A stretch of DNA of 64,000 nt from an uncultured bacterium. GTDB taxonomy: Bacteria; Babelota; Babeliae; Babelales; Vermiphilaceae. The stretch covers positions 1,243,895 to 1,307,894 of the forward strand of contig OY968764.1 in the NCBI GenBank assembly GCA_963695335.1. Direction: 5' to 3'. Shown piece by piece: positions 29,050 through 63,991 of the stretch. The notes beneath the pieces were generated by a model. It was not told where the DNA came from. It saw nothing but the letters and a program-made list of their open reading frames with translations, and made no database searches. Both the position numbers and the translations under genes were made by a program. How positions within the stretch are numbered: position 1 is the first letter of the stretch; each line of letters starts with the position of its first letter.

Positions 29050-29093
29050 TAAACTTATAAAAAAAATCATTCATCAACATTATAAGGATTACA

Positions 29094-35581: not shown

Positions 35582-35719
35582 AGCGCTGCAGACTAGCAAC
35601 AAATTATCCAGCTTTCCACCATGCTGTAATCAACATCCATTTATCTAGAAAAATACGTACACCATAAAAAAACAAAAAAAAATAATATCTTTTCATATTT
35701 CCAACAAAAGGACATTCTC

Positions 35720-36733
35720 ATGAAGCACATACAACTCTTTTCCTGTCTACTTTTTACTGCCATTGCAACCCATTGCATGGAAAACCAGCAAAACAATCAA
35801 CAAGCAGCACCAGAAAATCCATGGAAAGCTATTAATTGCCAAGCCATAGAAAAAAACCTTAATGATGACTATGATAGCTATCTTAAACAACGTTTAGAAG
35901 ACTATAAAACAAATGATTTCACACAACAAACAATGACCGACTTACAAACAATGGGTAATTTTATAACGGGAAAACAGAATATAGGTTTACCTTATAATCA
36001 TATTCGCGATAAGCAAGGCGATAGCTTTATCACCATCGCAGTTAAAAAACGAGACGTGCCAATTGTTAATTGGCACACAACAATCATCAGAAGAAATTAT
36101 ATTTCTCAAAAAGATTTTAACACATGCATTGCAACATGCATGCAATACCTCTCACCAAAAGAAACAGATAAAACCAAAAGAGATACTACATATACAATAC
36201 TTAAAAGGCTTACGCTAAAACACGGGCACTATACTATAGTACCTCTCTTACGTAATAAATCTGATAGAAAAAATCTTATCAAACAACTCATTACTCTACA
36301 AATTAAACATAAAAGACATAGCAGCAATTTTGTGATTGAAGATGAACTTATCACACAACATCTGACATCGGGAGAAAATGATCAATCACCTATTGCCATT
36401 GCCGATATATATCAAATGATTGCCAATAAAAAAGGAAATACATTATCGCATCTCGTTGTAACATCACAAGATCCAGATGAATTATGGAAGCTTATTACCA
36501 AAGAATATGTGTCTCCATTCCCAAATAAAGAGGAAAAAACCGTTCTCAATCTTGCACACGCATATTTCCAATCATTCAGCAAAGATGCAGCATCATTTGA
36601 TATATATCGAGAAGAATCTCAGCATGCTCGTTGCTGCTTATTCATGCTTCTCAATTATATCAAGTCAAAGCAAAACAATCAGGAACTTGCAACATTTACA
36701 CCATGCTGCGATAAACATACTGTAAAAAAATAA
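35720..36733 (+). CDS. member 2 of the tandem family
   Basis: Leader MKHIQLFSCLLFTAIATHCME. GNTLSHLVV..; C-terminus RCCLFMLLNYIKSKQ..PCCDKHTVKK. Confidence 0.7.
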   Translation: MKHIQLFSCLLFTAIATHCMENQQNNQQAAPENPWKAINCQAIEKNLNDDYDSYLKQRLEDYKTNDFTQQTMTDLQTMGNFITGKQNIGLPYNHIRDKQGDSFITIAVKKRDVPIVNWHTTIIRRNYISQKDFNTCIATCMQYLSPKETDKTKRDTTYTILKRLTLKHGHYTIVPLLRNKSDRKNLIKQLITLQIKHKRHSSNFVIEDELITQHLTSGENDQSPIAIADIYQMIANKKGNTLSHLVVTSQDPDELWKLITKEYVSPFPNKEEKTVLNLAHAYFQSFSKDAASFDIYREESQHARCCLFMLLNYIKSKQNNQELATFTPCCDKHTVKK

Positions 36734-36761
36734 TTTATATCTTCAACAAAAGGACATTCTC

Positions 36762-37766
36762 ATGAAGCGCACACAACTCTTTTCCTGTTTACTTTTCACC
36801 GCAATTACAACTCACTGCATGGAGGACAAGCCACAAAAACAAGAACTTGCAAATCCTTGGAAAGCAATTGATTGCCAAGTCATTGAAAAAAGCCTCACAG
36901 ACGACTATCATAACTATCTCAAAAACCGTTTGGAAGAATATAAAAAGGTTGATTTTACCCCTGAAAATATGATTCATCTGATATCTACAGGTATTTTTAT
37001 AACAGGAGATAAATACATAGGTCTTCCTTATAATGTTATCCGTGATGAAAACAATGATACTTTCCATAATATCGCAGTTAAACAACAAAATTTACCGGTC
37101 ATTAATTACTGTGTAAAAGGACATGGGTTTCATTGCATCACTCGTGATGACTTTGATCTATGTCTTGCAACATGCGTCAAACATCTTCACCCAGAGAAAA
37201 CTGATGCAACCGAAAAAACAACAGCCTATGAAATTATTAAAACACTCTGCACAAAACAAGGACCTAATGCGTCTATTTTTACTTTACGCGAAAAATCTTG
37301 CAGAGAAAATCTTATCAAGCAACTCATCTTGCTCCAAATCAAACATAAAAAATATAAGAGTGATTTTGTGATTGAAGATGAACTTATTGCGCAACACCTG
37401 ACATCAGGGGAAAATGATCAATCGCCTATTGTGCTAACAGATATGTATCAAACGGTTGCTAATAAAAAAGGAAATACATTATCTCATATAGTTGTAGAGT
37501 TACAAAACCCAGATGAGCTGCATCAACTTATTACCAAAAACTATATATCACCTGCTATAAATAAAACAAATGATACCGTACTCGATATTGCATTGTGGCA
37601 CTTCCAAGACTTTACTCATAACATATCTTCACTTGATGCGCATAAACCGCAAGCAGATCAATCACGATGCTGTTTATTTATGCTACTTAGCTATATTAAG
37701 TCAAAACAGAACGGCATATTAGACAAAAGTCAGCAATGTTGCGATAAACATCCTATAGCATTATAA
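36762..37766 (+). CDS. member 3 of the tandem family
   Basis: Leader MKRTQLFSCLLFTAITTHCME. Most similar to member 2. C-terminus RCCLFMLLSYIKSKQ..QCCDKHPIAL. Confidence 0.7.
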   Translation: MKRTQLFSCLLFTAITTHCMEDKPQKQELANPWKAIDCQVIEKSLTDDYHNYLKNRLEEYKKVDFTPENMIHLISTGIFITGDKYIGLPYNVIRDENNDTFHNIAVKQQNLPVINYCVKGHGFHCITRDDFDLCLATCVKHLHPEKTDATEKTTAYEIIKTLCTKQGPNASIFTLREKSCRENLIKQLILLQIKHKKYKSDFVIEDELIAQHLTSGENDQSPIVLTDMYQTVANKKGNTLSHIVVELQNPDELHQLITKNYISPAINKTNDTVLDIALWHFQDFTHNISSLDAHKPQADQSRCCLFMLLSYIKSKQNGILDKSQQCCDKHPIAL

Positions 37767-38410
37767 AACCAACAGCTTCCCATAAAAGAAACACAACAAA
37801 AAGGTACTTCTGATGAAAAATACACAACTCTTTTTCTATTTACTTTTCATAACAATCACAACTCATTGCATGGAACCCAATCCTTGGGCAGCCATTGATT
37901 GCCACAAAATCGAACAAACCTTATTTACTGATTACCGTAATTATTGCGCTGGACAACTTGAAGAATACAAGCAAACTACTTTTACGCCGCAACATATGAA
38001 ACATATAGAAGATATGGCAATCACGTATACGGGATACAATCATTATAAATCAACTCTCTATGATGTGCGTGATAAAGAAGATAATTGTTTTCCACATATT
38101 GCAATTCAAAAATTTGATTTACCAACACTTACATGGCTTGTAAGACAAAGAATATATTATCCAAAAAACAAACAGGGCAAAGGGTTTATCGAAGTATGCA
38201 TTGATCATTTATCCCCCCACAACAATATTGACGCTGAAAAGAAACAAATCGCATATGCTATGCTCAACACTATTATAACAAATTACGGCAAGAGGTTAGG
38301 CATTTCGCTCAGAAAACCAATTGTAGAAAATCTTATTGCGCTACAAATCGAACACAGAAAACAACACAACAACAATGTTTTAGCTGACATTGTATTGACA
38401 CCATTACTAG

Positions 38411-39258
38411 GTTCTGTTGAGTTTTTGAAAAGATAAGTTTTGAAGTATGATAACACCGAAAAAGCAAAAACCAAATCACTAAAACGGTGCTATCATGAAA
38501 AAAGAGTATATCAGCGAAATGGCCTGGAGCAAAATTTTTAATTTTTTAAAACAGCAAAAAAACATTTATATAAAAGAAGAAAAGGACTGTAAAAAGTTTA
38601 TAGAAGGGACATTTTGGATGGCAAGAACAGGAGCACAATGGAGAGAGTTGCCGGAAAAATATGGAAATTGGAATAGTGTGTTCAGCAGATTTAATGCTTG
38701 GTCAAAAAAACATATTTGGGAAAAATTACTCAGTTTTTGTGCAGAGGATCCCGATATGGAATATGTAATGATTGATGCCACGATAGTCCGCGCACATGCC
38801 TGTTCTGCTGGATATGATCAATTTAAAAATGAAGGACTGGGAAGAAGTAAAGGTGGTTTTACAAGTAAGATACATGCAACAGTAGATGCTTTAGGCAATC
38901 CTTTAAGATTTGTTATTACTCCTGGTCAGCGTAATGATATTACTCAGGCTGATATTTTATTAAAAGATATTTCTGAATCATATGTAATAGCGGATAAAGG
39001 ATATGATTCCACTGAATTACGTTCGAAATTAATAGAAAAAAATTGTGTTCCCGTTATTCCTCCAAGATCCAATCGTAAAGAACAATATCAATATGATGAA
39101 CATCTATATAAAGAGAGACATGCGATTGAATGCTTGTTTTCAAAGATAAAACACTTTAGAAGAGTGTTTGCTCGTTTTGATAAATCGGCACGAAATTTTT
39201 TATCTTTTCTTTCTTTTGTGGGAACTTGCATATGGTTACGATGAAAACTCAACAGAAC
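38411..39258 (+). mobile_element. IS5-family insertion sequence (848 bp)
   Basis: Inverted ends gttctgttgagtttt / aaaactcaacagaac with CTAG direct repeats at 38407-38410 and 39259-39262. Alternatively GG..CC ends with a TA duplication. Confidence 0.85.
38495..39244 (+). CDS. IS5-family DDE transposase
   Basis: WMARTGAQWRELPEKYGNWNSVFSRFNAWSK, IDATIVRAH, ADKGYDS and YKERHAIECLFSKIKHFRRVFARFDK are hallmarks of IS5/IS427-type transposases. Confidence 0.9.
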   Translation: MKKEYISEMAWSKIFNFLKQQKNIYIKEEKDCKKFIEGTFWMARTGAQWRELPEKYGNWNSVFSRFNAWSKKHIWEKLLSFCAEDPDMEYVMIDATIVRAHACSAGYDQFKNEGLGRSKGGFTSKIHATVDALGNPLRFVITPGQRNDITQADILLKDISESYVIADKGYDSTELRSKLIEKNCVPVIPPRSNRKEQYQYDEHLYKERHAIECLFSKIKHFRRVFARFDKSARNFLSFLSFVGTCIWLR

Positions 39259-40758: not shown

Positions 40759-40842
40759 CTATCGTTTTTTTAATCCTCCAGCATGAACTGTTGAAAAATT
40801 AATCAAAAAAACAGCAAACACATGCAATCAAAAGGTTTATTC

Positions 40843-41796
40843 ATGCATAAATATAATCTTCTCATTACCCTCACATCCCTTGTTACCGCATCCATACTAG
40901 CAATGGAACAAGAACAAAAAAACATACAACTTCAAAAAACAGAAAAATCTCGTTGTAAAATTTCTGAACTTCTAGAAAATCCTCGTACCCCAAAACGCCT
41001 TATAATGGAAATTAACAATTTACTAGAGAACAAAAACTTTACTCTTGATGCTCATTCTGTTGATTCAAAAACGCATCCATTCGAGATAAAAGTTGCTTTT
41101 TATAATGATAACATGGAACATGCATTAACGTATAAAATGCCACATGATTATCCATTTTATGCTCCTATTCTTTCATCTCTTGAAACGAGCAATACCATGC
41201 TTACAACACAAGACTTGATCGCCATTAAAAAAAAATTTAATGATGATCTTAAACAAATCTGGAATCCCGCACGACGAATGACTGAAATAGTTGCGATGAC
41301 TCATAAACACATAAGTTCCTATGAAGATCAAAAAATAGCATCTCAACGAGTTGCTCAAGGTTATGAAAGAACGTTACCTCAGATAAAAGAAAAATATCAA
41401 ACGACCAATGTCTATGTAAATAGCCAATATCCAGAATTTCAAGAAAAATTACATGGGCTTTGGATTAAAGAAATGCCAAGCGGATATTTTGTATTTCATG
41501 TCGAATATAATTACATAAATATAGCTTTTGAACCTAAGTACATAGGTGCAGAACCTCTATCATACCATGGATACTGTGCTGTGGGGTATCACGAGACACA
41601 TAATAACCAATTTCATATACACATAAGTGATACCAATGATTCAGGAAAAATAAATGCCTTTAAAATCTTTGTATACTCTGATCATATTTCAATCATATTT
41701 AACTCTCTACAACACGATTCAATCTTAAACGCCATCATATCTCAACTCAAAATGGATGATGTTATTGGAGAACGCATGGATTTAATAAAAATATAA
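40843..41796 (+). CDS. leader + UBC-fold (E2/UEV-like) domain protein lacking the catalytic Cys
   Basis: KRLIMEINNLLEN.., PFEIKVAFYNDNMEHALTYKMPHDYPFYAPIL and KQIWNPARRMTEIV parallel E2 KRIQKEL.., F..L.I.FP.DYPF.PP and WSPALT. No HPN-Cys segment. Start at the second ATG, which is shared with the 41880 leader. Confidence 0.5.
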   Translation: MHKYNLLITLTSLVTASILAMEQEQKNIQLQKTEKSRCKISELLENPRTPKRLIMEINNLLENKNFTLDAHSVDSKTHPFEIKVAFYNDNMEHALTYKMPHDYPFYAPILSSLETSNTMLTTQDLIAIKKKFNDDLKQIWNPARRMTEIVAMTHKHISSYEDQKIASQRVAQGYERTLPQIKEKYQTTNVYVNSQYPEFQEKLHGLWIKEMPSGYFVFHVEYNYINIAFEPKYIGAEPLSYHGYCAVGYHETHNNQFHIHISDTNDSGKINAFKIFVYSDHISIIFNSLQHDSILNAIISQLKMDDVIGERMDLIKI

Positions 41797-41879
41797 TAGT
41801 TCATCTTTGTCTCATTGCCTTTTTAGATAAAAAATATAACCTTATACTTAAAAAAATAATCATAATAAAAGGTTTATTC

Positions 41880-43034
41880 ATGCATACATATCATCTTCTC
41901 ATTATCCTCACATCAGTTGTTACTACATCTACTATGACAATGGAAGACTACCAACTTGATTTAGCTCATATAAAAAGGCTACAACGCAAATATATTGGAA
42001 AACATGGTTGGACAGTAAAAACAGACAAGAACGGAAAATACTCTGTATGCATAGATTGTAGTGATGGTCAAGGTGAGTTCTATGCAAAAACACAAGTTAT
42101 TCGCGAATTCAAAGAATATCAAAACACTCAATTCTTACTACAATTAGATACTACAAACAAATCCATAATCAGCGATGATAATGATGTGCACATTATTGAC
42201 ATGCAAACTGGCGAGGCTCAAGAAACTCTATCTGGTCATACAGATCTTGTCCATTGTTGCGCACATACCGATTACCGCCACATACTCGTTACAGGCTCCA
42301 ATGATACAACAATTAAATTGTGGAATATAAAAAATAATCAATGCATGCGAACATTGCATAGCCATAAACACTATGTAACAAATGTTGCTTCAAAAGGAAA
42401 TACTATCACTTCAACAGACAGAGAGCCTTGCTTAAAATTATGGGATATGTCATCTGCCAAAACATTTCATACAAAACTCTTTATTGATAAAAGTAATGAG
42501 CATCATATGCCTACGAGCCTCATGATGCATAACAACCTTATATATGTAGGACTCACAAAGGGGATAATCACAATAATTGATCCACGATCAACAATATCAG
42601 TCTATGAAGGAACTACCCACGCAGGCCCTGTTGAATGCCTTACTCCATGCACAAATAATAATGATGTATTCTATTCTGGATCATCAGATCAAACGGTCAA
42701 ACAATGGGATCTTCGTCGTCCTAATGCTCCCACCAAAATATTACATAAAAAAAATAATCCTGATAACCAAAAATATAGTATTCAAAATGTCTATGAAGAT
42801 CATAATGGTAAAAAAATATTTTCATCGGACAAAAATAGAATCTATATATGGGATGTTTCCACAGAAGAACCAAAAATAGTAACCACAAAAAAATTTGATC
42901 ATGCTATTTACCCCAACTGCATGCGCATGAATAATGATGAAACTGAGCTGTATATTGGCACAAAAGAAGGTATAAAAACCCTCACTCCCGCACTCAGCTT
43001 TGAACAACTTGCTGCATTAGCGGAACAAAAATAA
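41880..43034 (+). CDS. leader + WD40-repeat protein
   Basis: GHTDLVHCCAH..LVTGSNDTTIKLWNI, HSHKHYVTNV, LKLWDM and YSGSSDQTVKQWDLR. Confidence 0.85.
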   Translation: MHTYHLLIILTSVVTTSTMTMEDYQLDLAHIKRLQRKYIGKHGWTVKTDKNGKYSVCIDCSDGQGEFYAKTQVIREFKEYQNTQFLLQLDTTNKSIISDDNDVHIIDMQTGEAQETLSGHTDLVHCCAHTDYRHILVTGSNDTTIKLWNIKNNQCMRTLHSHKHYVTNVASKGNTITSTDREPCLKLWDMSSAKTFHTKLFIDKSNEHHMPTSLMMHNNLIYVGLTKGIITIIDPRSTISVYEGTTHAGPVECLTPCTNNNDVFYSGSSDQTVKQWDLRRPNAPTKILHKKNNPDNQKYSIQNVYEDHNGKKIFSSDKNRIYIWDVSTEEPKIVTTKKFDHAIYPNCMRMNNDETELYIGTKEGIKTLTPALSFEQLAALAEQK

Positions 43035-45624: not shown

Positions 45625-45845
45625 GCCAAATAGGCCATATTCATAACCTATTTGGCTCAAAATTAGCGATCCCCCTAAAAACAGATTAGTAAGACTAGAC
45701 ACATCTTGCATAGATAAAAGCAAATCTTTAAAATTCTTTTGATTAACACGACTCAATCGCTATTAAATAAAAAATTCTGCAATTTGGAAGCAATAATTCC
45801 AAATTGCAGAAAATATAGGTTTGAAGCGATTCAATCACACTATTC
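45625..45845. repeat. structured ~190-220 bp repeat, copy A (two conserved hairpins)
   Basis: Aligns with 55090-55270. Hairpin 1 is gagccaaatagg..cctatttggctc and hairpin 2 is ttctgcaatttgga..tccaaattgcagaa. Copy A has ~50 extra nt in the spacer. Confidence 0.8.
45766..45811 (-). terminator. rho-independent terminator of 45840..46502 (hairpin 2 of the repeat)
   Basis: 14-bp stem followed by a T-run on the minus strand. Confidence 0.7.
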
Positions 45846-46502
45846 TTTGTTCTTATTGTATTCTTCAAAAAGAGCACGCTGCTTGATATAACAATCTTTT
45901 TTATGCCGCAAAAGCCCCGCTATTTTCTTACATTGCTCAGCGGTGATCTTGTCATGAGCCCACAACAATTTTCCTTCTTCTTCCTTGCTCTGCAATTTTT
46001 GTAAACCTGCGTTTACAGTCATTACAAAATGATGCTCCTGATTAGCATCAGAGAAAAGTTCAACTCTTTTTTTCTGAGCATCATACAGGTCAAGATACTT
46101 ACAACAACGTGGATTGCTACATGGGATTTTTTTAATATATGCAAAAGAACACTCATCACTACCAATTTCTGCAATATCATAATAAAGTTTTTCAGCCCTA
46201 AAAGCTTTTGGGTCACGTACATACTTATACGTTTTATGCACACCTTTACATGCACCACCAATAATATAACATCCAGCAACAGTTGCAACTTGCCCTAGAG
46301 CATAACCGAGAGGCAAAATGAACATTGCTGCAGCAACAATTTCACCAGCCTCATCAAAATTTCTTTTTTGTATCATAGGACTTGTTACATTGACCCGATG
46401 TACAGATTTTGGCATCCGCTTGGTAACCAACTGCATTGCAGATACTTCTGATGCAATGATCATTGATACGCACAATCCAAAAAAAATAGTCTTACCATCC
46501 AT
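45840..46502 (-). CDS. leader-bearing Cys-motif protein, paralog family member
   Basis: MDGKTIFFGLCVSMIIASEVSAMQLVTKR parallels 47370..48332. CSNPRCCKYLD motif. Confidence 0.6.
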   Translation of the reverse strand: MDGKTIFFGLCVSMIIASEVSAMQLVTKRMPKSVHRVNVTSPMIQKRNFDEAGEIVAAAMFILPLGYALGQVATVAGCYIIGGACKGVHKTYKYVRDPKAFRAEKLYYDIAEIGSDECSFAYIKKIPCSNPRCCKYLDLYDAQKKRVELFSDANQEHHFVMTVNAGLQKLQSKEEEGKLLWAHDKITAEQCKKIAGLLRHKKDCYIKQRALFEEYNKNKE

Positions 46503-46507
46503 CTGCT

Positions 46508-47335
46508 TTACTCTCTTGTTTGATTCTTGCCACAGTGCAATAACTTATACTCTTCATCGATACGGCTTAATTTATATGACACAGTACGATTGCCTACCAG
46601 AGCGTTTCTATAATCTATTTTTGCCTGCTCATCAACTATCGCATCTTTATATTCTTTCTCATTTTCATACCATTCACTAATATCATCTCGGATCTCACGA
46701 ATTTGTTTGATTTTAGATGTCATTTTAAAATGATCTTCTTTCCAAGTATCAAAGCTATCTTCTAAAATAACTTGTGCCTGATTAAACAAACATGCATTTA
46801 TATTAGAAATCATCGAATATAATACTAAACGCTTTGACCTATCTGCATTACAAAATTCATTCAATATAACTCTATACTGTATTAAATCTATATATAAGTC
46901 TTTAATATCTTCCAAATATGCAACTCTACCTTTTTTTTCAACATTCTCCAAAAATCTCTGCCTTATTGCATGTGATCTTCGCGCTGCTTGTATATTTTTT
47001 TGCATTCCTAACAACAATGCTCCACCGCAACATATAGGTGAATTACATGCATCTGCTTTGAGAATTCGCTCAGCAAGAAAATTTTCACATTTCTTTGCAC
47101 CTAATTCTTTAATGTCTTCATACATTTCTGCTAAATCTTTTGACGTATATAGTGCATCTGAATAAAAACTAACACTATCTTTACCTACTCGAATATCAAA
47201 AGGCCTACTATTATTTCTTTGTTGAATTTTACAAAAAACATTCGACATGCGCTTAGTTTTGACTATCATCGCATGTGTCACCGACACAAACATCACTGAT
47301 GCACTCAATACAAAAAATATATTCTTACATTTCAT
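46508..47335 (-). CDS. leader-bearing Cys-motif protein, divergent paralog
   Basis: MKCKNIFFVLSASVMFVSVTHAMIVKTKR, CNSPICCGG. Same RBS context (aaggagcagcagATG) as the next gene. Confidence 0.55.
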   Translation of the reverse strand: MKCKNIFFVLSASVMFVSVTHAMIVKTKRMSNVFCKIQQRNNSRPFDIRVGKDSVSFYSDALYTSKDLAEMYEDIKELGAKKCENFLAERILKADACNSPICCGGALLLGMQKNIQAARRSHAIRQRFLENVEKKGRVAYLEDIKDLYIDLIQYRVILNEFCNADRSKRLVLYSMISNINACLFNQAQVILEDSFDTWKEDHFKMTSKIKQIREIRDDISEWYENEKEYKDAIVDEQAKIDYRNALVGNRTVSYKLSRIDEEYKLLHCGKNQTRE

Positions 47336-47369
47336 CTGCTGCTCCTTAAAAAATTAAAAACTTTTCCAT

Positions 47370-48332
47370 TTATTCAATACTACTATGGCTACTTGAAGAA
47401 CTATCCGAAGAAAAACTACTATCCCTATATGATTGCGAAGAATAACTCTCCATATTTGACATATACGATGAACTTGATGAACTATCAGAATGGGCAGTTG
47501 CACTATCACAAATTTGCTTTGCCACATATGCATGCATCATCAACATATTTAAATCGCGCGCAGGATCGTCATTTCTACGGCCATCGTCAGCTTTATCTTG
47601 TTGCCGTGGTGTATGTTGTTGTAGATTACACTCTTGATTATGTTGCTGCTGATTATCATATCGCTGCGTCTTTGGGACCATCAAAGTAATAGATTTAATC
47701 TTCTCACAATATTCTTTATCGCTCTGTTTTTTTGCTTCAGCACTATCAAAAAATTCATCAGAAAGAGCTATCTGTTTTATATGACAATCTTTTTTATGCT
47801 CAAGAAGACCCATAATTTTTTGATATCCTTCAATATAAATTTTATCTTGAGCAAGTAATTGCTTTGCTTCTTCTTCTTTATTATGCAATTTTTGTAAACC
47901 ATCTTTTACCCGTACTAAAAAATCACGTCCCTGATTAATGTCACAAAAAAGTTCAGGTCTTTTTTCATAAGCAAAGAGTGGGTGAAGATTCTTACAACAT
48001 TGTGGGTTTTTACACACCTCTTTTTTGATATAAACATTGGAACATCTCTCGCTACCAATGCCTGCAACTTCATTATGTAACCTGTTAGCTGTAATTATCA
48101 TCTTAGTAATTGGGCAAGTATTTAGAGCTTCTTCTATACAACAAATAGCCACAGGAACACCAACAAACCATATTAATGCTCCAAAACTTCCCCTTTTTTG
48201 CACCAGGGGACTCATGCTATTCACCCGATACATAGTTTTTGGTATTCGTCTTCTAACCAATTGCATTGCAGATATTTCTGATGCAATCATCATTGATGCA
48301 CACAAACCAAAAAATATATTCTTACCATTCAT
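47370..48332 (-). CDS. leader-bearing Cys-motif protein with a Ser-rich C-terminal tail
   Basis: MNGKNIFFGLCASMMIASEISAMQLVRRR, CKNPQCCKNLH, tail DSSSSSSYMSNMESYSSQSYRDSSFSSDSSSSSHSS. Start at ATG 48332 with AGGAG upstream. Confidence 0.6.
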   Translation of the reverse strand: MNGKNIFFGLCASMMIASEISAMQLVRRRIPKTMYRVNSMSPLVQKRGSFGALIWFVGVPVAICCIEEALNTCPITKMIITANRLHNEVAGIGSERCSNVYIKKEVCKNPQCCKNLHPLFAYEKRPELFCDINQGRDFLVRVKDGLQKLHNKEEEAKQLLAQDKIYIEGYQKIMGLLEHKKDCHIKQIALSDEFFDSAEAKKQSDKEYCEKIKSITLMVPKTQRYDNQQQHNQECNLQQHTPRQQDKADDGRRNDDPARDLNMLMMHAYVAKQICDSATAHSDSSSSSSYMSNMESYSSQSYRDSSFSSDSSSSSHSSIE

Positions 48333-48424
48333 CTGCTGCTCCTTAAAAAAAGTAAAATTTTGCATATCAATATGCTATACTACTAAAAAAATAGAATTTA
48401 TACATCACCTAAAAAGGTATTTTT

Positions 48425-49586: not shown

Positions 49587-50702
49587 TTATTCACAACGCC
49601 CAGCTTCATGGGCATGATCTCTATCCCACTGGTTAATATACCCTTCCACCATTTGTCGCCGATCAGCAGGAATAGGATGTAGAGGATAAATAATTTCTTT
49701 TATTATCCTACTATTGAGTACTCTCTCTAGCCTACTATCTGATATTTTATTTTTCTTATAATAGTCTGTTTCATGTTCCTTCCAATATTTTGCAAACTCT
49801 TCAAGCTCTAATCGCGATACAGCATGTTCACACGCAAATGTATCCGCAGGTGCCTCAAACCAATGTTTCGATAAAAATCCACCTAAAACAGCATTGGCCA
49901 ATGCTTTTGGTACAATGGCACCAATAGCAGAACCAGATCGCAACATAGTCTTTAAAAATGTTTTTGGTTGCGGTTGAATATTATATAATTTTCTCAATAG
50001 TTTAGTTGCTCCAAAAGATAATGCCTCAACTCCAAGAGGGATTGTTGTGAGAGCATACACATATTTATTACTATCCTCATGAACAATATGACCAAATTCA
50101 TGATTTACAATCATTGATTCTCGAGCGATTTTTGCTTTACATTGAGCAACATTTTGTTTCTCTACATCAATCTGTGATTCTGCAGATTTAATTAATTGGT
50201 TATCAGCACGCGACAAAAGAAAAGATTTAAATATTCCCCTTTTTTCTTTTTGTTGCTTGGCATATTCAAATTCTTTTAAAGCTTGATGAAGTCTTTCTTC
50301 TGCTAGCGGCTGATTGACTAAGGCTTCATGCAATTGATCGCAAACTTCTGAAGAAACTGATACCACACCAATATGTTCATTAGCACGAGCATGAGCATGA
50401 CGTGAATTCTTATGAGTCACTAAGAATATAGGTTTAGAATGAGGCATATTTGCTTGTTTTTTTTGACCTTCAAACCAATCATTAAGAGCTGGTTGCGTGG
50501 GCAACTCTTCATCAAAATCCAATACATTTACTTTTTCTAATGCTTTTTTATAGTTCTTAGAATGATACAATCCAAGAGTTGGCAACGTTGTTACGCCAAC
50601 AAAACGAGCTAATTTAAAGACTTTTCCACCCATGGCAAAAGATGGGATCATAAACGTAAAAAGCAGCATTAGAGCTGCATATTGTAAATAACTTTTATTC
50701 AT
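49587..50702 (-). CDS. putative zinc metalloprotease (HExxH, M48-like)
   Basis: NHEFGHIVHED, with a downstream WFEAPADTFACEHA (E..AD) as in M48 peptidases. N-terminal TM segment. Confidence 0.55.
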   Translation of the reverse strand: MNKSYLQYAALMLLFTFMIPSFAMGGKVFKLARFVGVTTLPTLGLYHSKNYKKALEKVNVLDFDEELPTQPALNDWFEGQKKQANMPHSKPIFLVTHKNSRHAHARANEHIGVVSVSSEVCDQLHEALVNQPLAEERLHQALKEFEYAKQQKEKRGIFKSFLLSRADNQLIKSAESQIDVEKQNVAQCKAKIARESMIVNHEFGHIVHEDSNKYVYALTTIPLGVEALSFGATKLLRKLYNIQPQPKTFLKTMLRSGSAIGAIVPKALANAVLGGFLSKHWFEAPADTFACEHAVSRLELEEFAKYWKEHETDYYKKNKISDSRLERVLNSRIIKEIIYPLHPIPADRRQMVEGYINQWDRDHAHEAGRCE

Positions 50703-50860
50703 AACGTTCCTGATTGATAATTTTTTAACCTTTGGTTATATACTATACAGCATACATTTTTTACAAAAATTATCAATTTGAAACATCAAAAACTCCTAAA
50801 AAAATCCCTTCTAAAAATTAATCTAGAAGGGCAATAAATGCTGCTCAAGACTTTTATTAT

Positions 50861-52135
50861 TTACTTTTGTGTCTCAATAAAAGGATTTACTCCACCATGC
50901 TTCCTTATTATTGCCTTATTTATTAAAGACAAAATTTCTGCATCTGATGTAATTGAAGGTTGCGGAAAACGTGTTGCTGCAGATTGTATTGCTGCTGCAT
51001 ACCCCTCTGGATAAATAATCTTTATAGCATTATTACGTGGCGTTACACCAAATTTATTGACAAACTCTGGGTCTGCTCCTGCATCAAGAAGTTCTTTAAT
51101 CATTAATTTATTTTTTGTATTAATTGCAGCCGAAAGAGCTGTAGTTCCTTTCTTATTCTGTTGATCTATTGCGATATAAGGATTATTTAAAAGACATTTG
51201 ACTGCTTCCATGTGGCCCTCATCCACAGCAAATAATAATGCTGTATCTCCATACATAGGAGTATCTTTATTAACATCTGCTCCATACTCAAGAAGTATAG
51301 TAATCATAGGGCAGTTATTGTCTTGTGCTGCATGCATAAGAGCTGTTAGTCCACCATTGCTTGGCTGATCTATCTTAATTCGAGGGTTACTTAAAAGACA
51401 TTTAACTGCTTCCATATGTCCTTGAGCAACAGCAAGTGCTAATACTGGGATTCCAGACTCTAAAACAATTTTATTAATATCTGCTCCATGCTCAAGAAGT
51501 ATAGTAATCATAGGACAATTGTTGTAAAACACTGCAAGCGAAAGAGCTGTGCCCCCATCAGTACCTACTTGATCTATCTTAATTTGCGGATTACTTAAAA
51601 GACATTTAACCGCTTCCATATGTCCTTCAGCAACAGCAAACCGCAATGCTGTCGTTCCTTTCGTATTACCTTTATTGATATCTGCCCCATGCTCAAGCAA
51701 TATATTAATAACAGGACAATGATTTTCTTGTGCCGCAAACATAAGGGCTGTACTCCCAAAACTATCTTGTTGGTCTACCTTAATGTGAGGATTATCTAAA
51801 AGACATTGAACTGCTTCTATATGCCCCTTTTGAGCAGCAAATATTAATGCTGTCCTCCCATCAGAATCAATTACGTTAACATCAATTCCATCATCAAGAA
51901 GTTTTGTAATTGTAGAGCAATCATTTTCCTTTGCTGCGTTCAAGAAGGCATCACTTTGTCCTCCTTGAATATATTTTTTATATGCTAAATAACCACCCCC
52001 AATAGCCGCTCCGATAAGTGCAATCAATCCTATTTTTTTTGCGGTACTTGATTCTTCTTCCATGCCATAATTATGATATGGTGTAATTATCAGCAAAAAT
52101 GCAGTGATCATGCTCAATTTTTTTGTACAATCCAT
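50861..52135 (-). CDS. ankyrin-repeat protein (about 9 repeats) with leader/TM
   Basis: Repeated DGRTALIFAAQKGHIEAVQCLL, GSTALMFAAQENHCPVINILLEHGADIN and similar units. Leader ..PYHNYGME followed by a second hydrophobic segment. Confidence 0.9.
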   Translation of the reverse strand: MDCTKKLSMITAFLLIITPYHNYGMEEESSTAKKIGLIALIGAAIGGGYLAYKKYIQGGQSDAFLNAAKENDCSTITKLLDDGIDVNVIDSDGRTALIFAAQKGHIEAVQCLLDNPHIKVDQQDSFGSTALMFAAQENHCPVINILLEHGADINKGNTKGTTALRFAVAEGHMEAVKCLLSNPQIKIDQVGTDGGTALSLAVFYNNCPMITILLEHGADINKIVLESGIPVLALAVAQGHMEAVKCLLSNPRIKIDQPSNGGLTALMHAAQDNNCPMITILLEYGADVNKDTPMYGDTALLFAVDEGHMEAVKCLLNNPYIAIDQQNKKGTTALSAAINTKNKLMIKELLDAGADPEFVNKFGVTPRNNAIKIIYPEGYAAAIQSAATRFPQPSITSDAEILSLINKAIIRKHGGVNPFIETQK

Positions 52136-52252
52136 ATATCCCCCTCCCTCTTTTTTTAATTACAACTTCCCTATAGAAATCTTAAACAATAGCATTTCAA
52201 TTAGTCAACACTAAATCATAAAACCTATCAGATAATAGCTTTTTATAATAAT

Positions 52253-52296
52253 AATTCAGCCAAGTAGACCAACTTCTTAGGCTACTTGGCTGAATT
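52253..52296. repeat. 15-bp-stem hairpin related to hairpin 1 of the 190-bp repeat
   Basis: aattcagccaagtag..ctacttggctgaatt shares the AGCCAAGTAG core with 55094-55103. Confidence 0.5.
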
Positions 52297-52332
52297 ATCG
52301 TTTTTATGAATTTTATTTAAAAGGCGTTTTTC

Positions 52333-53514
52333 TTATAATTGGCAGCCATGACTTTTAACTAAATTATACATAATAAAGCGCATAACTCCCGCAGGGATGT
52401 TCTGCATAGTTCCATAAAAATCAATGGTGTAATTTTTTAAAAACCAATATTTAAAAGCAAACGAGCGTTGCTTATCAATAGTATCAACCATCTCTTTGAG
52501 CCAACCTTTTGGCTCTCCTTGTTCCACATCGAATGCGGTTTTTTCCACACCATCATCTTCATGATACCAAAATGGATATTCCATTCGTTTAATGCTAGCA
52601 CGTGTAACACTATCACTATTTACAAAATACTGTAACAACAACCATGCATATTCTTGATCATTATTGCGTGCTGCAATCATAAGGGGAGAAAACTTTTCAA
52701 ACGACTGAGTACAATCTGGATCGGCACCATATGCAAGGAGCGATAGTGCTATAATACAATAATGCACTTTTCTATTTCCATGTTTTCCAAAGCTCCAACA
52801 GCGTTTTTTGGCGATATCCAACAACAAATTATTGTTGATTTTATTTTTGCAATCAGAGCCAACGGCAAGAAGCTGCTCTATTTTTTCAAAATCCATTGTT
52901 TTAAAAGCCAAAGAAAGTAACGTATGTGGACTGTACTTTTCCACCAGTTGTTTAAATTTCATTCCCGTTCTTTTTGGTCTGGTAGTATCTCTGCTTTTAT
53001 ATTTTGCCATTTTATGACTTAACCAACCATGGCTTACTTGATAGCTCGCATTCAAATACCAAGAATCTTGCAAATCTTCTGGTGTAAACTGCCTATCTGC
53101 ATCGGTCACAATATCAAACAACTGATCCATTTTTTGCCGTATAGTAAAAAAAACGCCGCCTTTTGAATTAAGGCAGCGAGCAACTGTTTCATCACACATC
53201 CAACGCTGATGTTGTGCAATACTCTTAATTATTTTTTGGGCACTCTTTTCTTTAGAAAATCTTTCAGAAAAAAACCTATTAACACATGTCACTGTCTGAA
53301 GATCTCTACCAAAGTGGTGTACCACACTATCATTGCAATGATTGTACTTTCTACCACCTGATTGATCTACAATAAAATGATTTTCAGCATACAGCCAGCT
53401 CAGAATCTTTACCAACACTTGATCTCTAACTTTTTCTTCTTGCTGTATCACCAAATCCATACTATGCAATGCAGTAGTAATAATAAACAATGCAAAAACT
53501 ATTTTTTTATGCAT
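52333..53514 (-). CDS. leader + F-box-like protein with C-terminal ANK-like repeat(s)
   Basis: Leader ..ITTALHSMD. RDQVLVKILSWL..CVNRFFSERF is F-box-like. FSPLMIAARNNDQEYAWLLLQY is ANK-like. Confidence 0.55.
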   Translation of the reverse strand: MHKKIVFALFIITTALHSMDLVIQQEEKVRDQVLVKILSWLYAENHFIVDQSGGRKYNHCNDSVVHHFGRDLQTVTCVNRFFSERFSKEKSAQKIIKSIAQHQRWMCDETVARCLNSKGGVFFTIRQKMDQLFDIVTDADRQFTPEDLQDSWYLNASYQVSHGWLSHKMAKYKSRDTTRPKRTGMKFKQLVEKYSPHTLLSLAFKTMDFEKIEQLLAVGSDCKNKINNNLLLDIAKKRCWSFGKHGNRKVHYCIIALSLLAYGADPDCTQSFEKFSPLMIAARNNDQEYAWLLLQYFVNSDSVTRASIKRMEYPFWYHEDDGVEKTAFDVEQGEPKGWLKEMVDTIDKQRSFAFKYWFLKNYTIDFYGTMQNIPAGVMRFIMYNLVKSHGCQL

Positions 53515-59078: not shown

Positions 59079-59909
59079 ATGCGATATATAATTCTTCTCT
59101 TAAGTTTATATACAACACCGTTGTATGGTATGAAATCTTTAATTGAAAAAGAGCCACGCTATTGTTTTAAAAACTTAACGGTCTTCAGCTATGATGGCTG
59201 GGAAGGTAATGCTATTTTCATCGCAAAAAACGCCGCATTAGTTCATTCCAATACACCAATAATAAACAACACAACCAATGACGTTAAAAAACCAGTAAAA
59301 CATCCTGAGATAAAAAACCTCTTTTTTAGAGAGCCGCAACAGAATACCTATGATCTTGTTACTGTATATAATCCCTACATGCTCAATAAAAAAAACATAC
59401 TCATTCATCTCAAAGCAATTCATAATTATCTTGCACCATCGGGCAAATTCTGTTTTTTAATAAGAACAAAAGCAAACACTCTCTCTGTTCCTGAACAAGC
59501 ATTTGCAACTATCTTCCCCCACGAGTATTTATCTACTCAACGCGCAAAAGAAGAACAAATAAAAGCAAACTATTTTACTGATGATGAACTCAAGGAACTT
59601 ATCTGGTCAAATGGATATAATATCAATGTCTACGAAAATAAAACCTATGAAACCATTTTACCCGATATACACGATTATCAAGAAGCACTTGCAGCAACAT
59701 TTATTCACAATATACGCCATACCAATGTATCAAAAACAATAACACAACAGCTCACTGAGCAATTTATACAACTTGTTATGCAACAAAGTAAAAGAAATCG
59801 TCGCAACCAAATAATAGAATCTTGGAATTTTACAAAAATAATCTTATGCAAAACAGATAAACTCAGGCCTCCTGTATTTTTGAACAATTCACTATTATCA
59901 ACGCACTAA
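59079..59909 (+). CDS. leader-bearing methyltransferase-like protein (motif I degenerate)
   Basis: Leader ..LYTTPLYGMK. YDLVTVYNPYML..YLAPSGKFCFLIRT parallels the two downstream paralogs. Confidence 0.5.
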   Translation: MRYIILLLSLYTTPLYGMKSLIEKEPRYCFKNLTVFSYDGWEGNAIFIAKNAALVHSNTPIINNTTNDVKKPVKHPEIKNLFFREPQQNTYDLVTVYNPYMLNKKNILIHLKAIHNYLAPSGKFCFLIRTKANTLSVPEQAFATIFPHEYLSTQRAKEEQIKANYFTDDELKELIWSNGYNINVYENKTYETILPDIHDYQEALAATFIHNIRHTNVSKTITQQLTEQFIQLVMQQSKRNRRNQIIESWNFTKIILCKTDKLRPPVFLNNSLLSTH

Positions 59910-59994
59910 ACTTAACAAGATTTCTCGACAATACACTGTAGCAATGGTAACATTTGGTGAAATTATTCAATCATATACAAAATAAAGGTTTCCC

Positions 59995-60867
59995 ATGAAA
60001 AAATATGTTTTACTTGCAGCATTCATAATCAGCGCACTTAATGGAATGGATAATCAACAACCTAAGAACTCATCTATTGTTTCACAACTTTTAGAACATT
60101 ATAATATTCCCATTCAAAATCGTGCCATTTTTCATATTGGATGTACCACAGGAAAAAGATCTGTCGAACTTGCACAAAAAGCATCTCGCGTTCATGTATT
60201 CGATCAAAATAAAAATTTTATTGATACTGCGCAAAACACATACCAAGATATCAAAAACATTACGTTTGAACAATGTAATCCCATGAATTTTAATTTTCCA
60301 AGACAATGCGATGTGGCAATCATTGATTACACCACAATAAACGATTATGCGGAGATTAATGAACACAAACAAGAACTATTCCAATGTATGCATCAACATT
60401 TATTACAAAATGGTGAAATATTGCTTTCTATTACAACAACTGAAAACACACCACATCCAAATATTGATGCTGCCAAAGAAATGGCTTCAGTTCTACAAGC
60501 ATACATACCTGGTACAACAGAAGAAGAAATTATCAATCTTATGACACCATCGTACCCTTCTTTGCAAGACCTACTCACTGCACTCGAAGAAACTGGCTTT
60601 GAGATTATTACTCATAAAGAACAAATTATTACTAAAGAAATGAACGAAAAAAAATTCTTGAACAGCTGTGAATATATCATTACCCAAAACCCAATATCTG
60701 AAAAAATACAAGATCCTAATCTTAGAAATGACCTCACTCATCACTTTATACATTCTTATCTAAAACATTTAACCCAGTTTGTACATATACACAATTTGCA
60801 AAAAAGGCATGCAAATACTTACTTAGAACCACTAATTACTACGATCATTCATGCGCGTAAAAAATAA
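59995..60867 (+). CDS. leader-bearing class I SAM-dependent methyltransferase
   Basis: Leader ..FIISALNGMD. IFHIGCTTGKRSVELAQKASRVHVFDQN, CDVAIIDY and LLQNGEILLSI. Confidence 0.7.
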   Translation: MKKYVLLAAFIISALNGMDNQQPKNSSIVSQLLEHYNIPIQNRAIFHIGCTTGKRSVELAQKASRVHVFDQNKNFIDTAQNTYQDIKNITFEQCNPMNFNFPRQCDVAIIDYTTINDYAEINEHKQELFQCMHQHLLQNGEILLSITTTENTPHPNIDAAKEMASVLQAYIPGTTEEEIINLMTPSYPSLQDLLTALEETGFEIITHKEQIITKEMNEKKFLNSCEYIITQNPISEKIQDPNLRNDLTHHFIHSYLKHLTQFVHIHNLQKRHANTYLEPLITTIIHARKK

Positions 60868-60879
60868 AAAAGGAATTAC

Positions 60880-61812
60880 GTGAAAAAGTATCTTATTGCT
60901 CTGTGCTTCATCAACAGCCTCAACTGCATGGAAAAGGAATCTTCTCTTAAAAAAACTGAAATATCCAAAAAAATAAGCAAACGTAAAGATTATGATGCGT
61001 ACGCTTATGACAACATCAAAATGAATATTGAAGTAGAAAATACTGTTTTACAATGGTTTCAAGATTGCAACATTGATACCACTGAAAAAACGATTCTGAA
61101 CATGGATTGCAACACAGGTAATATTAATGCAAGACTTGCAGAAACAGCAAAATATGTTCATGGAATTTCCGAAAGTAAAAATTTTATTAATTTTGTACTC
61201 AACAAACACACAAATGCTATACAGGATGGAAAACTCTCTTTTGAATATGTCAAAACAAAAAATTTTGAATCAAACCCTCAGCAATATGACATAGCAATCA
61301 CATGTTCTATGAATAACTGGAAAACTCATAGTGAAAATATCTTACGTAAAGTTAACAAAGGCCTCAAACCAAATGGAGATTTTTTCGCAGTTCTTTTAAC
61401 AAGTGATAATCCTGAAATTTACAGCTATGTTGCTGCTCAAAAATTTATAAAAAAACATATTTCTTCTTATCTTAATTTAGCCAAATTAACAGGCTGGTCG
61501 CCTTTATCTAAAGAAGCCCTCATAAGTCTCTTTACAACAACAGGCTTTGAAATTATTACCCTCGAAAATCAATCTTGTAAAAGAACAATGACCAAAGATG
61601 ATATACGTGAAAGCGCTAAATATGTGGGTAAAAGCACCCCATTGGCAAAATACATACCAGATAAAAAACTTGAATCAGGCTTAAATAAGTATGCTGATCT
61701 GTGTATAGAAGAATTACAATGTGTTGATAAAGATAAAGATGAATATACATTTGAGGTATTACTCACTGTTGTTCATGCACGCAAAACTCAAGAAATTGAT
61801 AATAAAAAATAA
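60880..61812 (+). CDS. leader-bearing class I methyltransferase-like protein (paralog)
   Basis: GTG start, leader ..FINSLNCME. ILNMDCNTGNINARLAETAKYVHGISES, YDIAITCS and LKPNGDFFAVLLT. Confidence 0.65.
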   Translation: MKKYLIALCFINSLNCMEKESSLKKTEISKKISKRKDYDAYAYDNIKMNIEVENTVLQWFQDCNIDTTEKTILNMDCNTGNINARLAETAKYVHGISESKNFINFVLNKHTNAIQDGKLSFEYVKTKNFESNPQQYDIAITCSMNNWKTHSENILRKVNKGLKPNGDFFAVLLTSDNPEIYSYVAAQKFIKKHISSYLNLAKLTGWSPLSKEALISLFTTTGFEIITLENQSCKRTMTKDDIRESAKYVGKSTPLAKYIPDKKLESGLNKYADLCIEELQCVDKDKDEYTFEVLLTVVHARKTQEIDNKK

Positions 61813-61821: not shown

Positions 61822-62253
61822 ATGAAAAACGATTTATTCATTAAAAACGGCATCACCATTCCAGAACATGAATTAGAAATAACCACCAGCAGATCAGGCG
61901 GCGCTGGTGGTCAACATGTCAATAAAACAGAAACACGCATAACTGTGCGGTGGAATATCAAAAACTCAACTACTCTTACTGAAGAACAGAAAAACTATCT
62001 TTTAGAAAAGCTGCATTCACAACTCACCAGCGAAGGCGATATTGTGGTGCACAACAGCGAATCCCGCAGTCAACAACAAAACAAAAAAAATGCTCTTAAT
62101 AATCTTGCTGCCATCATACGCAATGCTTTACACAAGCCTAAAAAGCGTATCGCAACAAAAATATCAAAAGCATTAAAAGAAGCACGGTTAAAAACCAAAG
62201 CGCATCGGGGGAAGATTAAAGAGATGCGCAGTAAAAAAATTAGTTTTGATTAA
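61822..62253 (+). CDS. arfB: alternative ribosome-rescue factor ArfB (peptidyl-tRNA hydrolase, GGQ)
   Basis: SRSGGAGGQHVNKTETRITVRW and a basic C-terminal tail KKRIATKISKALKEARLKTKAHRGKIK. Confidence 0.9.
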   Translation: MKNDLFIKNGITIPEHELEITTSRSGGAGGQHVNKTETRITVRWNIKNSTTLTEEQKNYLLEKLHSQLTSEGDIVVHNSESRSQQQNKKNALNNLAAIIRNALHKPKKRIATKISKALKEARLKTKAHRGKIKEMRSKKISFD

Positions 62254-62263: not shown

Positions 62264-63991
62264 TTATTTATTGCGCTCTGTATTTATAAATGCTTCTACC
62301 GCCTCCATAAATGTATCAAAAACTGACATTATCTTAGAAGAGGCATGCCTTTTTACAATATCTTCCGCATAGTCTTTATCAAATCCAGCTGTTAAACACA
62401 CATTAGTAAACTCATTTTCCTCATGTGATGCATAACGTAATATGTACATTTCTACAGCGATAAATAACCCAACTTTTTTTGCTAAATCAGGGTGTAATCT
62501 TTTAAATCCTTCATAATCTTTTTTTACACGATCAAATTCATCCATTAATTCCTTAAGGGTATACCTATACATATACTCTCCCTTTCGGATCTTTCCTACT
62601 CTTTCATTAAGAGCAAACATCATATCAATTACCCTCTTGGCAATCACTTTAATAACAAGTTGTGACGGGATTTTTAAATAATCAAAATAATTTGCTAGGT
62701 CAATCATTGCATCAAATCCCCAATCCAATGACTTTTGTTTCATACCCCATTCAACATCCCATGTAGATTTTTCTTGAGCGTTCAAATGTTCAATTTTATT
62801 AATTTCAGAGATTACATAATGGATTCTTTCTATGACATGAAAAGGAAATCTCATGGAAATAGCAATCTGTCCATTCTCTTTGCCCAAATCTTCCACAAAG
62901 TTTTTAAGAACTTCACTTTGTTGTAGTATATCCCATGAAAAAACTACTCCATCAGCTATTCCTTCTTGATATATAAAAAACTCACCTGGTTTTAAAGTTT
63001 TTTCTATCGCAACCACTTTTGCAGCTGCTTCTTCTCTTGTCAGCTTTCTTGCAAAAAATCTCATTTTTCCTTGAGCTACTAGTTCTTGTTCTTGAGCTCG
63101 TTGCTTCTCTATAAAATCTTCCAAGGCGCCTATAAAATACTCTTCAAACCAAGCTGCTAAAGGAGATTTTTTTAATATCTCATCTGCATGTGCTATATAC
63201 TCATCACTTAAATCTATTTCTTTAAATAAATCAGAAGTAGTTTTCAAAAAAACACGATAAGAATATGGTTTTATACATGGAACAAGCTTATAAGCCTTTT
63301 TACTATACAGCTCTTTTTTTACCAGCTCAGCCACATCACTATTCAATAATTTTAATTGTGCAAAAAAGTTTTGTACCTCTTTACATACCATCTCTAATTC
63401 ATTAAAAGTTATTTTACGGCTAAAATTATCATGTATTACAAGAAAAACGGTATCAACCGTTTTCATTATCCTTGCCGCAATACATACAACAAGCATAGAA
63501 ATATCAAGATCTAAAAAGTTATACAAATCAGCAACCCCAACAAGCATTGGAAAGTCTAAAGAAGCAATATCAAATTCTTGTTTTTTACGCCAATCACGTA
63601 TGTATTGCTGCTTTGCCTCTTCACTTTCTTTTGTCTTTAAGACATCTAAAAGATCAAATTCGTCTTGTAATATGGAAAAAACTTTTTTGATTACATCATA
63701 ATGAGCATACAAAGGAATAGCACCACTACCCATATCGCCTAAATCCTCAAGCATACTCTTTGTAGAAGGAGCCATTTGCAACAGTTCATGAGGCACAACA
63801 ATCCCATTGTCTGTTCCTGCTTGGTATACAAAAAACTCTCCTGACTTTAAATTTTTTTCTATATCGACAATCTTTTTTGCCGCTTCCATTTCTGCAGTTT
63901 TTGCCGCAGTTGTGGCTCTTTCTCTTTCTATGAGCTTTTTAGTCGATGCTTGGCTCTTTGGCGTCATCTTCATAGAAAAAACATTACCCAT
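62264..63991 (-). CDS. tandem Skp1-like (BTB/POZ-fold) domain protein with an MGNVFS N-terminus
   Basis: Internal duplication. Each half has ..STKSMLEDLG../..VLKNFVEDLG.. and ..ADLYNFLDLDISMLVVCIAARIMK../..LANYFDYLKIPSQLVIKVIAKRVIDMM.., matching SKP1 [10 protein letters not shown] and [23 protein letters not shown]. Confidence 0.6.
   Translation of the reverse strand: MGNVFSMKMTPKSQASTKKLIERERATTAAKTAEMEAAKKIVDIEKNLKSGEFFVYQAGTDNGIVVPHELLQMAPSTKSMLEDLGDMGSGAIPLYAHYDVIKKVFSILQDEFDLLDVLKTKESEEAKQQYIRDWRKKQEFDIASLDFPMLVGVADLYNFLDLDISMLVVCIAARIMKTVDTVFLVIHDNFSRKITFNELEMVCKEVQNFFAQLKLLNSDVAELVKKELYSKKAYKLVPCIKPYSYRVFLKTTSDLFKEIDLSDEYIAHADEILKKSPLAAWFEEYFIGALEDFIEKQRAQEQELVAQGKMRFFARKLTREEAAAKVVAIEKTLKPGEFFIYQEGIADGVVFSWDILQQSEVLKNFVEDLGKENGQIAISMRFPFHVIERIHYVISEINKIEHLNAQEKSTWDVEWGMKQKSLDWGFDAMIDLANYFDYLKIPSQLVIKVIAKRVIDMMFALNERVGKIRKGEYMYRYTLKELMDEFDRVKKDYEGFKRLHPDLAKKVGLFIAVEMYILRYASHEENEFTNVCLTAGFDKDYAEDIVKRHASSKIMSVFDTFMEAVEAFINTERNK

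Follow-up and report, generated by a model that had tools for sequence, protein, structure and literature searches.

SKP1 is the adaptor of eukaryotic SCF (SKP1-cullin-F-box) ubiquitin ligases, and intracellular bacteria hijack host ubiquitin ligases by means of F-box, U-box/RING or, in the Chlamydiae, BTB proteins. Here we describe a bacterial gene, located on the minus strand of a 64,000-nucleotide stretch of contig OY968764.1 (the window), whose product is very probably an exported protein with two Skp1-like POZ modules in tandem. In the window the gene is listed as an open reading frame (ORF) of 575 residues at 62264-63991; an identical protein in a public collection, called P0001 below and used for residue numbers, is encoded on a contig of 1,366,684 bp, has 592 residues and starts MKSNGVTRLIAFLTIIFMGNVFSMKM.

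An earlier note on this DNA had assumed the setting of an intracellular bacterium, and this agrees with the marker protein Ffh/SRP54. The Ffh encoded in the window is 91-92% identical to that of metagenome-assembled genomes (MAGs), one of them labelled Candidatus Babeliales; the identity is 86% with the complete MAG OY969561.1, and 75-76% with MAGs labelled 'Candidatus Dependentiae' and 'candidate division TM6'. Judged by this protein the source is a Babeliales/Dependentiae (TM6) bacterium, and Dependentiae are obligate intracellular parasites of protists. The G+C of the window is about 34%. Several MAGs whose Ffh is 53-92% identical, for example L002 (CAZWTF010000001.1), are labelled 'uncultured Pseudomonadota bacterium'; these are probably mislabelled Dependentiae bins.

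The nearest bacterial precedent is the expansion of F-box and BTB-box proteins in amoeba-associated Chlamydiae. In both cases eukaryote-like ubiquitin-ligase adaptor folds are found in obligate intracellular bacteria of protists (PMC4209131), and both show lineage-specific expansion, tandem paralogs, rapid divergence and the coupling of an adaptor to repeat domains. However, the chlamydial proteins have BTB and F-box domains that Pfam recognises and are type III secretion substrates, while the family described here is of the Skp1 type, belongs to another phylum and carries Sec leaders. According to Domman et al. 2014, BTB occurs in no bacterial lineage other than the Chlamydiae (PMC4209131).

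Effectors of the Legionella AnkB type share the ecological setting and the presumed target, the host SCF ligase, but the contributions differ: AnkB supplies an F-box and borrows the SKP1 of the host, while the Dependentiae bacterium supplies the SKP1-like part. Further, AnkB is a farnesylated Dot/Icm substrate, whereas the Dependentiae protein carries a Sec leader, and its true N-terminus lacks a lipidation motif. When viral predicted structures are searched with Foldseek, 'SKP1/BTB/POZ' proteins of giant viruses and BTB/POZ-WD-repeat proteins of mimivirus match best (for example mimivirus R786/R739 and SKP1-like proteins of Orpheovirus and Pandoravirus). The giant viruses likewise have amoebal hosts, and the order POZ-then-WD40 is shared with P0020, P0025, P0027 and P0029, four relatives of our protein. 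The viral proteins differ in that they have no signal peptides, that the Foldseek E-values are only 0.01-0.2, and that a pattern search of viral contigs revealed no sequence relatives. The remark that no bacterial mimic of Skp1 has been characterised holds as far as the literature searched, whose coverage is incomplete: it yielded no account of a Skp1-like protein from a bacterium.

Two homologous units

The protein contains two homologous units, about 270 residues long, which both consist of a POZ domain and a helical extension. The internal duplication had been pointed out before and is clearly seen with both methods used: in BLASTP the two halves align over 203 residues with 29% identity (E=5e-20), and in a MAFFT alignment the similarity covers ~270 residues, that is nearly the full length of the halves including the C-terminal helices. 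A hidden Markov model (HMM) of the family finds two modules in the target ORF, and when applied to the whole window it finds no Skp1-like module elsewhere.

Remote homology to SKP1

According to the earlier note each half resembles SKP1. At the level of the family profile and of the fold this stands, but for single sequences the evidence is weak. In P0001 the Pfam family Skp1_POZ (PF03931) matches residues 354-377 only, that is 24 residues in the second half, with 19.3 bits (E=0.0013), below the gathering cutoff of 21.9 bits, and the first half alone has no Pfam Skp1 match. Weak Skp1_POZ matches are also seen in 15 of the 24 family modules (best E=7e-4). A single-sequence phmmer search against PDB likewise gives a weak signal, and hhalign with the two halves only against human SKP1, whose sequence was verified against PDB, yields a probability of 23%.

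The signal is stronger when the family is used. An alignment of the modules (24 sequences) was turned into an HMM and searched with hmmsearch against all PDB sequences. It retrieves Skp1-family chains almost exclusively, with alignments that span SKP1 residues 16-127: Dictyostelium Skp1a at E=8.4e-6, human SKP1 at 1e-4 to 3e-4, yeast Skp1 at 1e-3 and plant ASKs more weakly, while no BTB or Elongin C chains are matched. The N-terminal 67 profile positions are sufficient to retrieve SKP1 (E=1.7e-4). Using hhalign, the family profile aligns with a small Skp1 alignment over 89 columns (SKP1 residues 15-119) with 89.4% probability and E=2.1e-6, and the matched columns include the SKP1 signature S24..IK.MLEDLG35, P46-L-P48 and Y109-L-D-I.

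Taken together, these profile comparisons support a remote homology to SKP1, and one that is specific relative to other POZ families. The family shares with SKP1 the signature S..IK.M.EDLG, (I/V)PLP and (N/D)(Y/F)LD(I/V), but the identity is at best about 20-28%, and the scores stay below the Pfam threshold. The 'NYLDI' helix was also considered as a mark of a cullin interface, a suggestion that was dropped, human SKP1 Asn108 being located at the F-box/Rav1-binding patch (PMC11648922).

Predicted fold

An AlphaFold2 model was made of the second unit (P0001 residues 336-592) with a 23-row alignment of the family. Its mean predicted local distance difference test (pLDDT) is 84.7 and its predicted template modelling score (pTM) 0.79, to be compared with a pLDDT of 39.6 for a model from the single sequence. 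The order of elements in the unit is an N-terminal helix, strand, strand, helix, helix, strand, a long helix, a variable insert, three helices and then four more (model elements E19-24, E30-34, H35-38, H42-50, E58-62, H66-83, H95-106, H108-120, H126-151). The module itself, strand-strand-helix-helix-strand-helix followed by H4-H6, has a pLDDT >90 over most of its length. This first part of the model maps one-to-one onto S1-S2-H1-H2-S3-H3, loop, H4-H5-H6 of SKP1, so that the topology of the POZ core and the helices H4-H6 are shared with SKP1.

The comparison of a model with known structures by Foldseek, which the earlier note had proposed, places SKP1 chains as the nearest folds. The top matches in PDB are mouse SKP1 (in 12dl/9w2m), plant ASK1 and OSK20, with target-normalised TM-scores (template modelling) of 0.49-0.57 and probabilities of 0.96-1.0. 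Elongin C follows, and then the BTB domains of KEAP1, KBTBD2 and BCL6 (BTB probability 0.2-0.7). In agreement with this ranking, neither P0001 nor the family modules have a Pfam match to BTB (PF00651). As the Foldseek E-values are weak, the fold evidence corroborates the sequence evidence and does not stand on its own.

The helical extensions

Where SKP1 has its F-box-binding helices H7-H8, each unit of the Dependentiae protein has a helical extension of about 120-145 residues that is specific to the family. Compared with SKP1, the bacterial protein has no detectable counterpart of H7-H8, but it has a Sec signal peptide, a tandem duplication and helical extensions, and some relatives have WD40 fusions. 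The extensions show no Pfam or PDB sequence match. Conserved in them across the family is a motif, below called motif 2, with the consensus [Y/F]xxLxxL.P[D/E]hxKxhh.

The presence of motif 2 raises the idea of a single-chain fusion of Skp1 and F-box, in which motif 2 would serve as a cryptic F-box, packed in cis on the Skp1-like helices, and the protein as a pre-assembled unit of Skp1, F-box and receptor in need of host Cul1 only. The motif occurs family-wide at a fixed distance after H6, and in the fused members it lies just ahead of the WD40 domain, the place of the F-box in F-box-WD40 proteins. Further, the helices that bear it have high confidence in the model (pLDDT 91-94), whose pTM, given above, suggests one compact unit. 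On the other hand, ten extensions have no Pfam match to F-box, F-box-like or PRANC at E<=10, motif 2 itself matching neither PF00646 nor PF12937, and a profile of 19 motif sequences finds no F-box protein in PDB. We therefore regard a cryptic F-box as improbable.

A predicted N-terminal signal peptide

The ORF was described earlier with exact coordinates and exact peptide strings, but its strand, minus, was missing and its 5' end is open at the edge of the window: the nine bases up to position 64000 keep the frame. This matters for the N-terminus. In the window the ORF begins with MGNVFS, and this had been read as a start that fits the N-myristoylation consensus. In the 592-residue protein, however, the true ATG lies 17 codons (51 nucleotides) further upstream, outside the window, and the N-terminus reads MKSNGVTRLIAFLTIIFMGNVFS, with the predicted cleavage before MKM. 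MGNVFS thus corresponds to residues 18-23 of the leader, and its Gly is residue 19, not position 2 of the translated protein.

The leader consists of MKSNGVTR, LIAFLTIIFMGN and VFS, which gives a mature protein that begins with MKMTPK, without Gly2. The assignment is based on a heuristic using the n-region, the h-region and the -3/-1 residues, and the leader has what is expected of a substrate of Sec and signal peptidase I, namely a positively charged n-region, a hydrophobic h-region 10-18 residues long and, at -3/-1, residues that are small. All relatives (28/28) share such a leader, with a Lys-rich n-region, 14-18 hydrophobic residues and a predicted cleavage between x-F-[S/A] and M-[R/K]-M. 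GNVFS is a conserved segment of it: Val precedes the Gly in most relatives, among them P0003, P0004, P0006, P0008, P0009 and P0013, as in 'IFVGNVFSMRMTPQ'. Because the conserved leader has Val at this place in six relatives, the Met of MGNVFS is, on this comparison, a mere hydrophobic substitution inside the leader.

The model built on the earlier note is a protein delivered to the cytosol, starting at MGNVFS and myristoylated at Gly2 by the N-myristoyltransferase of the host. With its tandem Skp1 domains this protein would act at membranes, either as a decoy or as an adaptor for host F-box proteins or CUL1. The peptide does match M-G-x-x-x-S/T, and the Skp1-like homology that the model needs is supported. 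Its start site fares worse. The frame is open upstream to the longer ATG, which in a second assembly with the gene (L001) directly follows an in-frame TAA and has a Shine-Dalgarno-like GGGGA 5 nucleotides upstream, while no such motif precedes the MGNVFS ATG in that assembly (flank ...gacgataattttt). In the source genome the gene call is also 592 residues. Together with the Val-preceded GNVFS in the six relatives and the predicted mature N-terminus, this refutes the myristoylation reading and leaves the model as a whole very improbable. As the window cuts off the signal peptide, the motif is an artefact of the window edge, and a caution follows: motifs at ORF starts near the edges of a window can be artefacts.

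Signal-like leaders are common in this DNA. They are found on 22 of the 58 large ORFs of the window (21/57 without the target); in Chromulinavorax 44% of the coding sequences have signal peptides (PMC6561590), and the conserved core genome of TM6 includes a type II secretion system (PMC4776705). The pattern in these ORFs is MK.. followed by 10-18 hydrophobic residues and [A/G/S/C/T]-Met-[E/D/K/Q], where Met is nearly always the first residue after the predicted cleavage; examples are 16611-17585, 24242-25225, 29094-29876, 33260-38436, 40822-43034, 45840-48365, 49587-53514 and 59079-61812. This Met could belong to a cleavage motif peculiar to the lineage, or mark an alternative internal start from which a non-exported isoform is made.

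A small family with variable C-termini

A phmmer search against 1.84 billion representative proteins returned 28 relatives (clusters) with E-values from 3e-22 to 9e-4, and a homologue search with the family alignment returned only 4 proteins. The sequence pattern 'FVY[AQ]xGT..G' has no match in GTDB genomes (of which the genome of the window is not a representative), viral contigs or JGI metagenomes, while a second pattern finds 4 loci in JGI metagenomes. The family is unannotated, that is, without names in Pfam, NCBIfam or the source records. It is small, rare, fast-evolving and restricted to a lineage.

The members have one to three modules, P0002 having three. The Skp1-like module is always N-terminal. 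The C-terminus differs between members: some have a WD40 propeller, others helical domains, and these in many cases close with a Trp-rich tail. Propellers are found in P0011, P0020, P0025, P0027 and P0029, and truncated ones in P0017 and P0028. On the metagenomic contig L039 (7096-10450) three Skp1-like paralogs stand in tandem within 3.4 kb, with another leader-bearing gene interleaved.

The Trp-rich tails read KKWFWQR(K)KW(F), or GWFSGWW after WD40, and are seen in P0002, P0005, P0014, P0018, P0020, P0025 and P0027 as well as at L039:7096-7935 and L036:716-2716. Such a tail, which is absent from the protein of the window, could be a signal for membrane association or sorting. Conservation also extends to the 5' side of the genes: the translation of the flank, IEY[LV]F[FL][NI]IRE[DV]VMK, and the leader MKNILKNNGL recur among paralogs and contigs (L039; L037:1604-3316), and even in an unrelated neighbour gene. 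This similarity suggests that the paralogs share a cassette made of the 5' untranslated region and the leader.

Possible function

We infer that the protein most likely works as an adaptor or decoy that is secreted and directed against cullin-RING ligases of the host. After Sec export, type II secretion or vesicles would possibly deliver the protein to the host, where its Skp1-like module would dock on a component of the SCF ligase, either a cullin or, less likely, F-box proteins. Ubiquitination would then be redirected to targets that the C-terminal part binds, or the host ligase would be titrated, and the two tandem modules may act as a built-in pseudo-dimer. By analogy, an adaptor fold and a target-binding domain in one chain match cullin-RING substrate receptors, for example BTB-Kelch proteins and the mimivirus BTB-WD40 proteins. 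Taken as a whole, and with this function included, the statement that we deal with an exported, effector-like tandem Skp1-like protein of Dependentiae that acts on a host cullin-RING ligase seems to us about evenly poised between right and wrong.

Several points weigh against it. None of the sequences scanned (P0001 and the 24 modules) reaches the Skp1_POZ gathering score, and the Skp1 C-terminal domain PF01466, which contains H7-H8 and completes the F-box groove, is undetected in members and extensions at E<=10. A profile of the C-terminal helices alone does not match SKP1, and the score of the combined profile gains only about 5 bits from them. With the Pfam threshold missed and no detectable C-terminal F-box-binding domain, the protein is not to be filed as a member of the Skp1 family. 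The Foldseek E-values against PDB are 0.077 or worse, and the model covers unit 2, so that the fold of unit 1 follows from homology. Nor does the neighbourhood help: the six F-box-like proteins and the UBC-fold protein that the window had been said to contain were not reproduced by Pfam, which finds neither F-box nor UQ_con in 30 neighbouring ORFs, and no ubiquitin-related cluster is detectable. In nine N-terminal segments following the leaders no Pfam F-box or UQ_con domain is found at E<=10, although very divergent F-boxes could escape; the only F-box-related trace is a weak match to PRANC (a poxvirus F-box-like domain, E=0.053) in the N-terminal part of the ankyrin protein at 16611-17585. 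Finally, exit beyond the periplasm, interaction with a cullin or F-box protein of the host, and an effect on ubiquitination are steps that we infer.

The POZ fold is widely used for oligomerisation, and T1/KCTD or BTB domains occur in contexts other than ligases. The modules could thus be generic interaction or oligomerisation modules without a link to host ubiquitination that only scaffold or oligomerise exported proteins, with C-terminal domains that work independently, for example at the cell surface, in the periplasm or on structures of the host. That neither the Skp1 F-box-binding region nor, in the neighbourhood, F-box/UBC partners were detected would fit this, and Sec leaders alone bring a protein only to the periplasm. 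However, the sequence signal is specific for Skp1 and not for BTB or T1, and it includes the S..IK.M.EDLG and IPLP signature that is shared with SKP1. Further, the bacterium lives as an obligate parasite of eukaryotes, and ankyrin and WD40 domains of eukaryotic type abound in its proteins with leaders. The WD40 fusion also mirrors the substrate receptors of cullin ligases. With these points in mind a generic module appears possible but rather doubtful.

Returning to an action on host ligases, a more detailed proposal can be made. Dependentiae may have evolved, or captured and remodelled, a Skp1-type domain into secreted single-chain receptors, where the module would plug into host Cul1 and the helical or WD40 domain would select the victims, without an F-box protein; the tandem protein would then bring in two cullins or keep SCF from becoming active. 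We offer this tentatively, as an idea that may well be wrong. We consider the structural assignment fairly secure, but not the function.

Features of the gene and its neighbourhood

The features of the gene are listed in Table 1. The end of the linker is a helix ahead of the first strand of the domain, and the equivalent helix of unit 2 is modelled at pLDDT 96.

Table 1. Features of the tandem Skp1-like gene, in window coordinates and ordered from the N-terminus of the protein
Feature	Position	Strand	P0001 residues	Remarks
First 14 residues of the signal peptide, MKSNGVTRLIAFLT, and true ATG	beyond window end	-		592-residue database protein; TAA and GGGGA upstream
Predicted Sec-type signal peptide, 23 residues	63974..64000	-		In the window: C-terminal 9 residues, IIFMGNVFS
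Basic helical linker (MKMTPKSQ...AAKKIVDIE)	63857..63973	-	24-62	K/R/Q-rich linkers here in all relatives
Skp1-like POZ module 1	63467..63856	-	63-192	Family HMM domain i-E=1e-32; homologous to module 2; motifs GEFFVYQ, S..K.MLEDLG, AIPL, YNFLDLD
Helical extension 1	63035..63466	-	193-336	Aligns with extension 2 and the extensions of relatives; family-specific; motif 2 is LKLLNSDVAELV at 63320-63355
N-terminal helix and Skp1-like POZ module 2	62630..63034	-	337-471	Family HMM i-E=1e-33; AlphaFold2 model; motifs GEFFIYQ, S..LKNFVEDLG, IAIS, FDYLKIP
Helical extension 2	62267..62629	-	472-592	Modelled as four helices, two at pLDDT 91-94; motif 2 is FKRLHPDLAKKV at 62471-62506
Stop codon	62264-62266	-

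Most of the neighbouring genes encode ankyrin, WD40, methyltransferase or orphan proteins with leaders, and housekeeping genes lie among them. Convergent with the target gene lies a gene for a 143-residue RF-1-domain protein (ArfB-like peptidyl-tRNA hydrolase; 61822-62253, plus strand); the two genes end 10 bases apart, at 62253 and 62264 with the stop codons included, and the layout is the same in L001. Leader-bearing WD40 and ankyrin proteins are dense, at 33260-34525, 41880-43034 and 28105-29876 on the plus strand and at 16611-17585, 50861-52135 and 52333-53514 on the minus strand. At 34601-38436 (plus strand) there are four tandem paralogs of 326, 337, 334 and 207 residues that have no significant Pfam match; they carry nearly identical leaders, MK.xQ[LI]FSCLLFTA..THC with cleavage before ME, and a motif NPW.AI[DN]C. 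Two adjacent proteins similar to class-I S-adenosylmethionine methyltransferases (59995-60867 and 60880-61812, plus strand) have leaders like those of signal peptides and are possibly exported.

Significance

If the Skp1-like module docks on host cullins, it would represent a new entry point into SCF ligases and help to explain how Dependentiae, a phylum that has hardly been studied, manipulate their protist hosts, and the fusions with WD40 domains, helical domains and Trp-rich tails would form a natural library of substrate receptors. If the proteins are indeed single-chain Cul1 receptors, they would be the first case of a bacterium that mimics the SKP1 subunit as such, and would give intracellular microbes a fourth route into cullin-RING ligases, after the mimicry of F-box, U-box/RING and BTB proteins.

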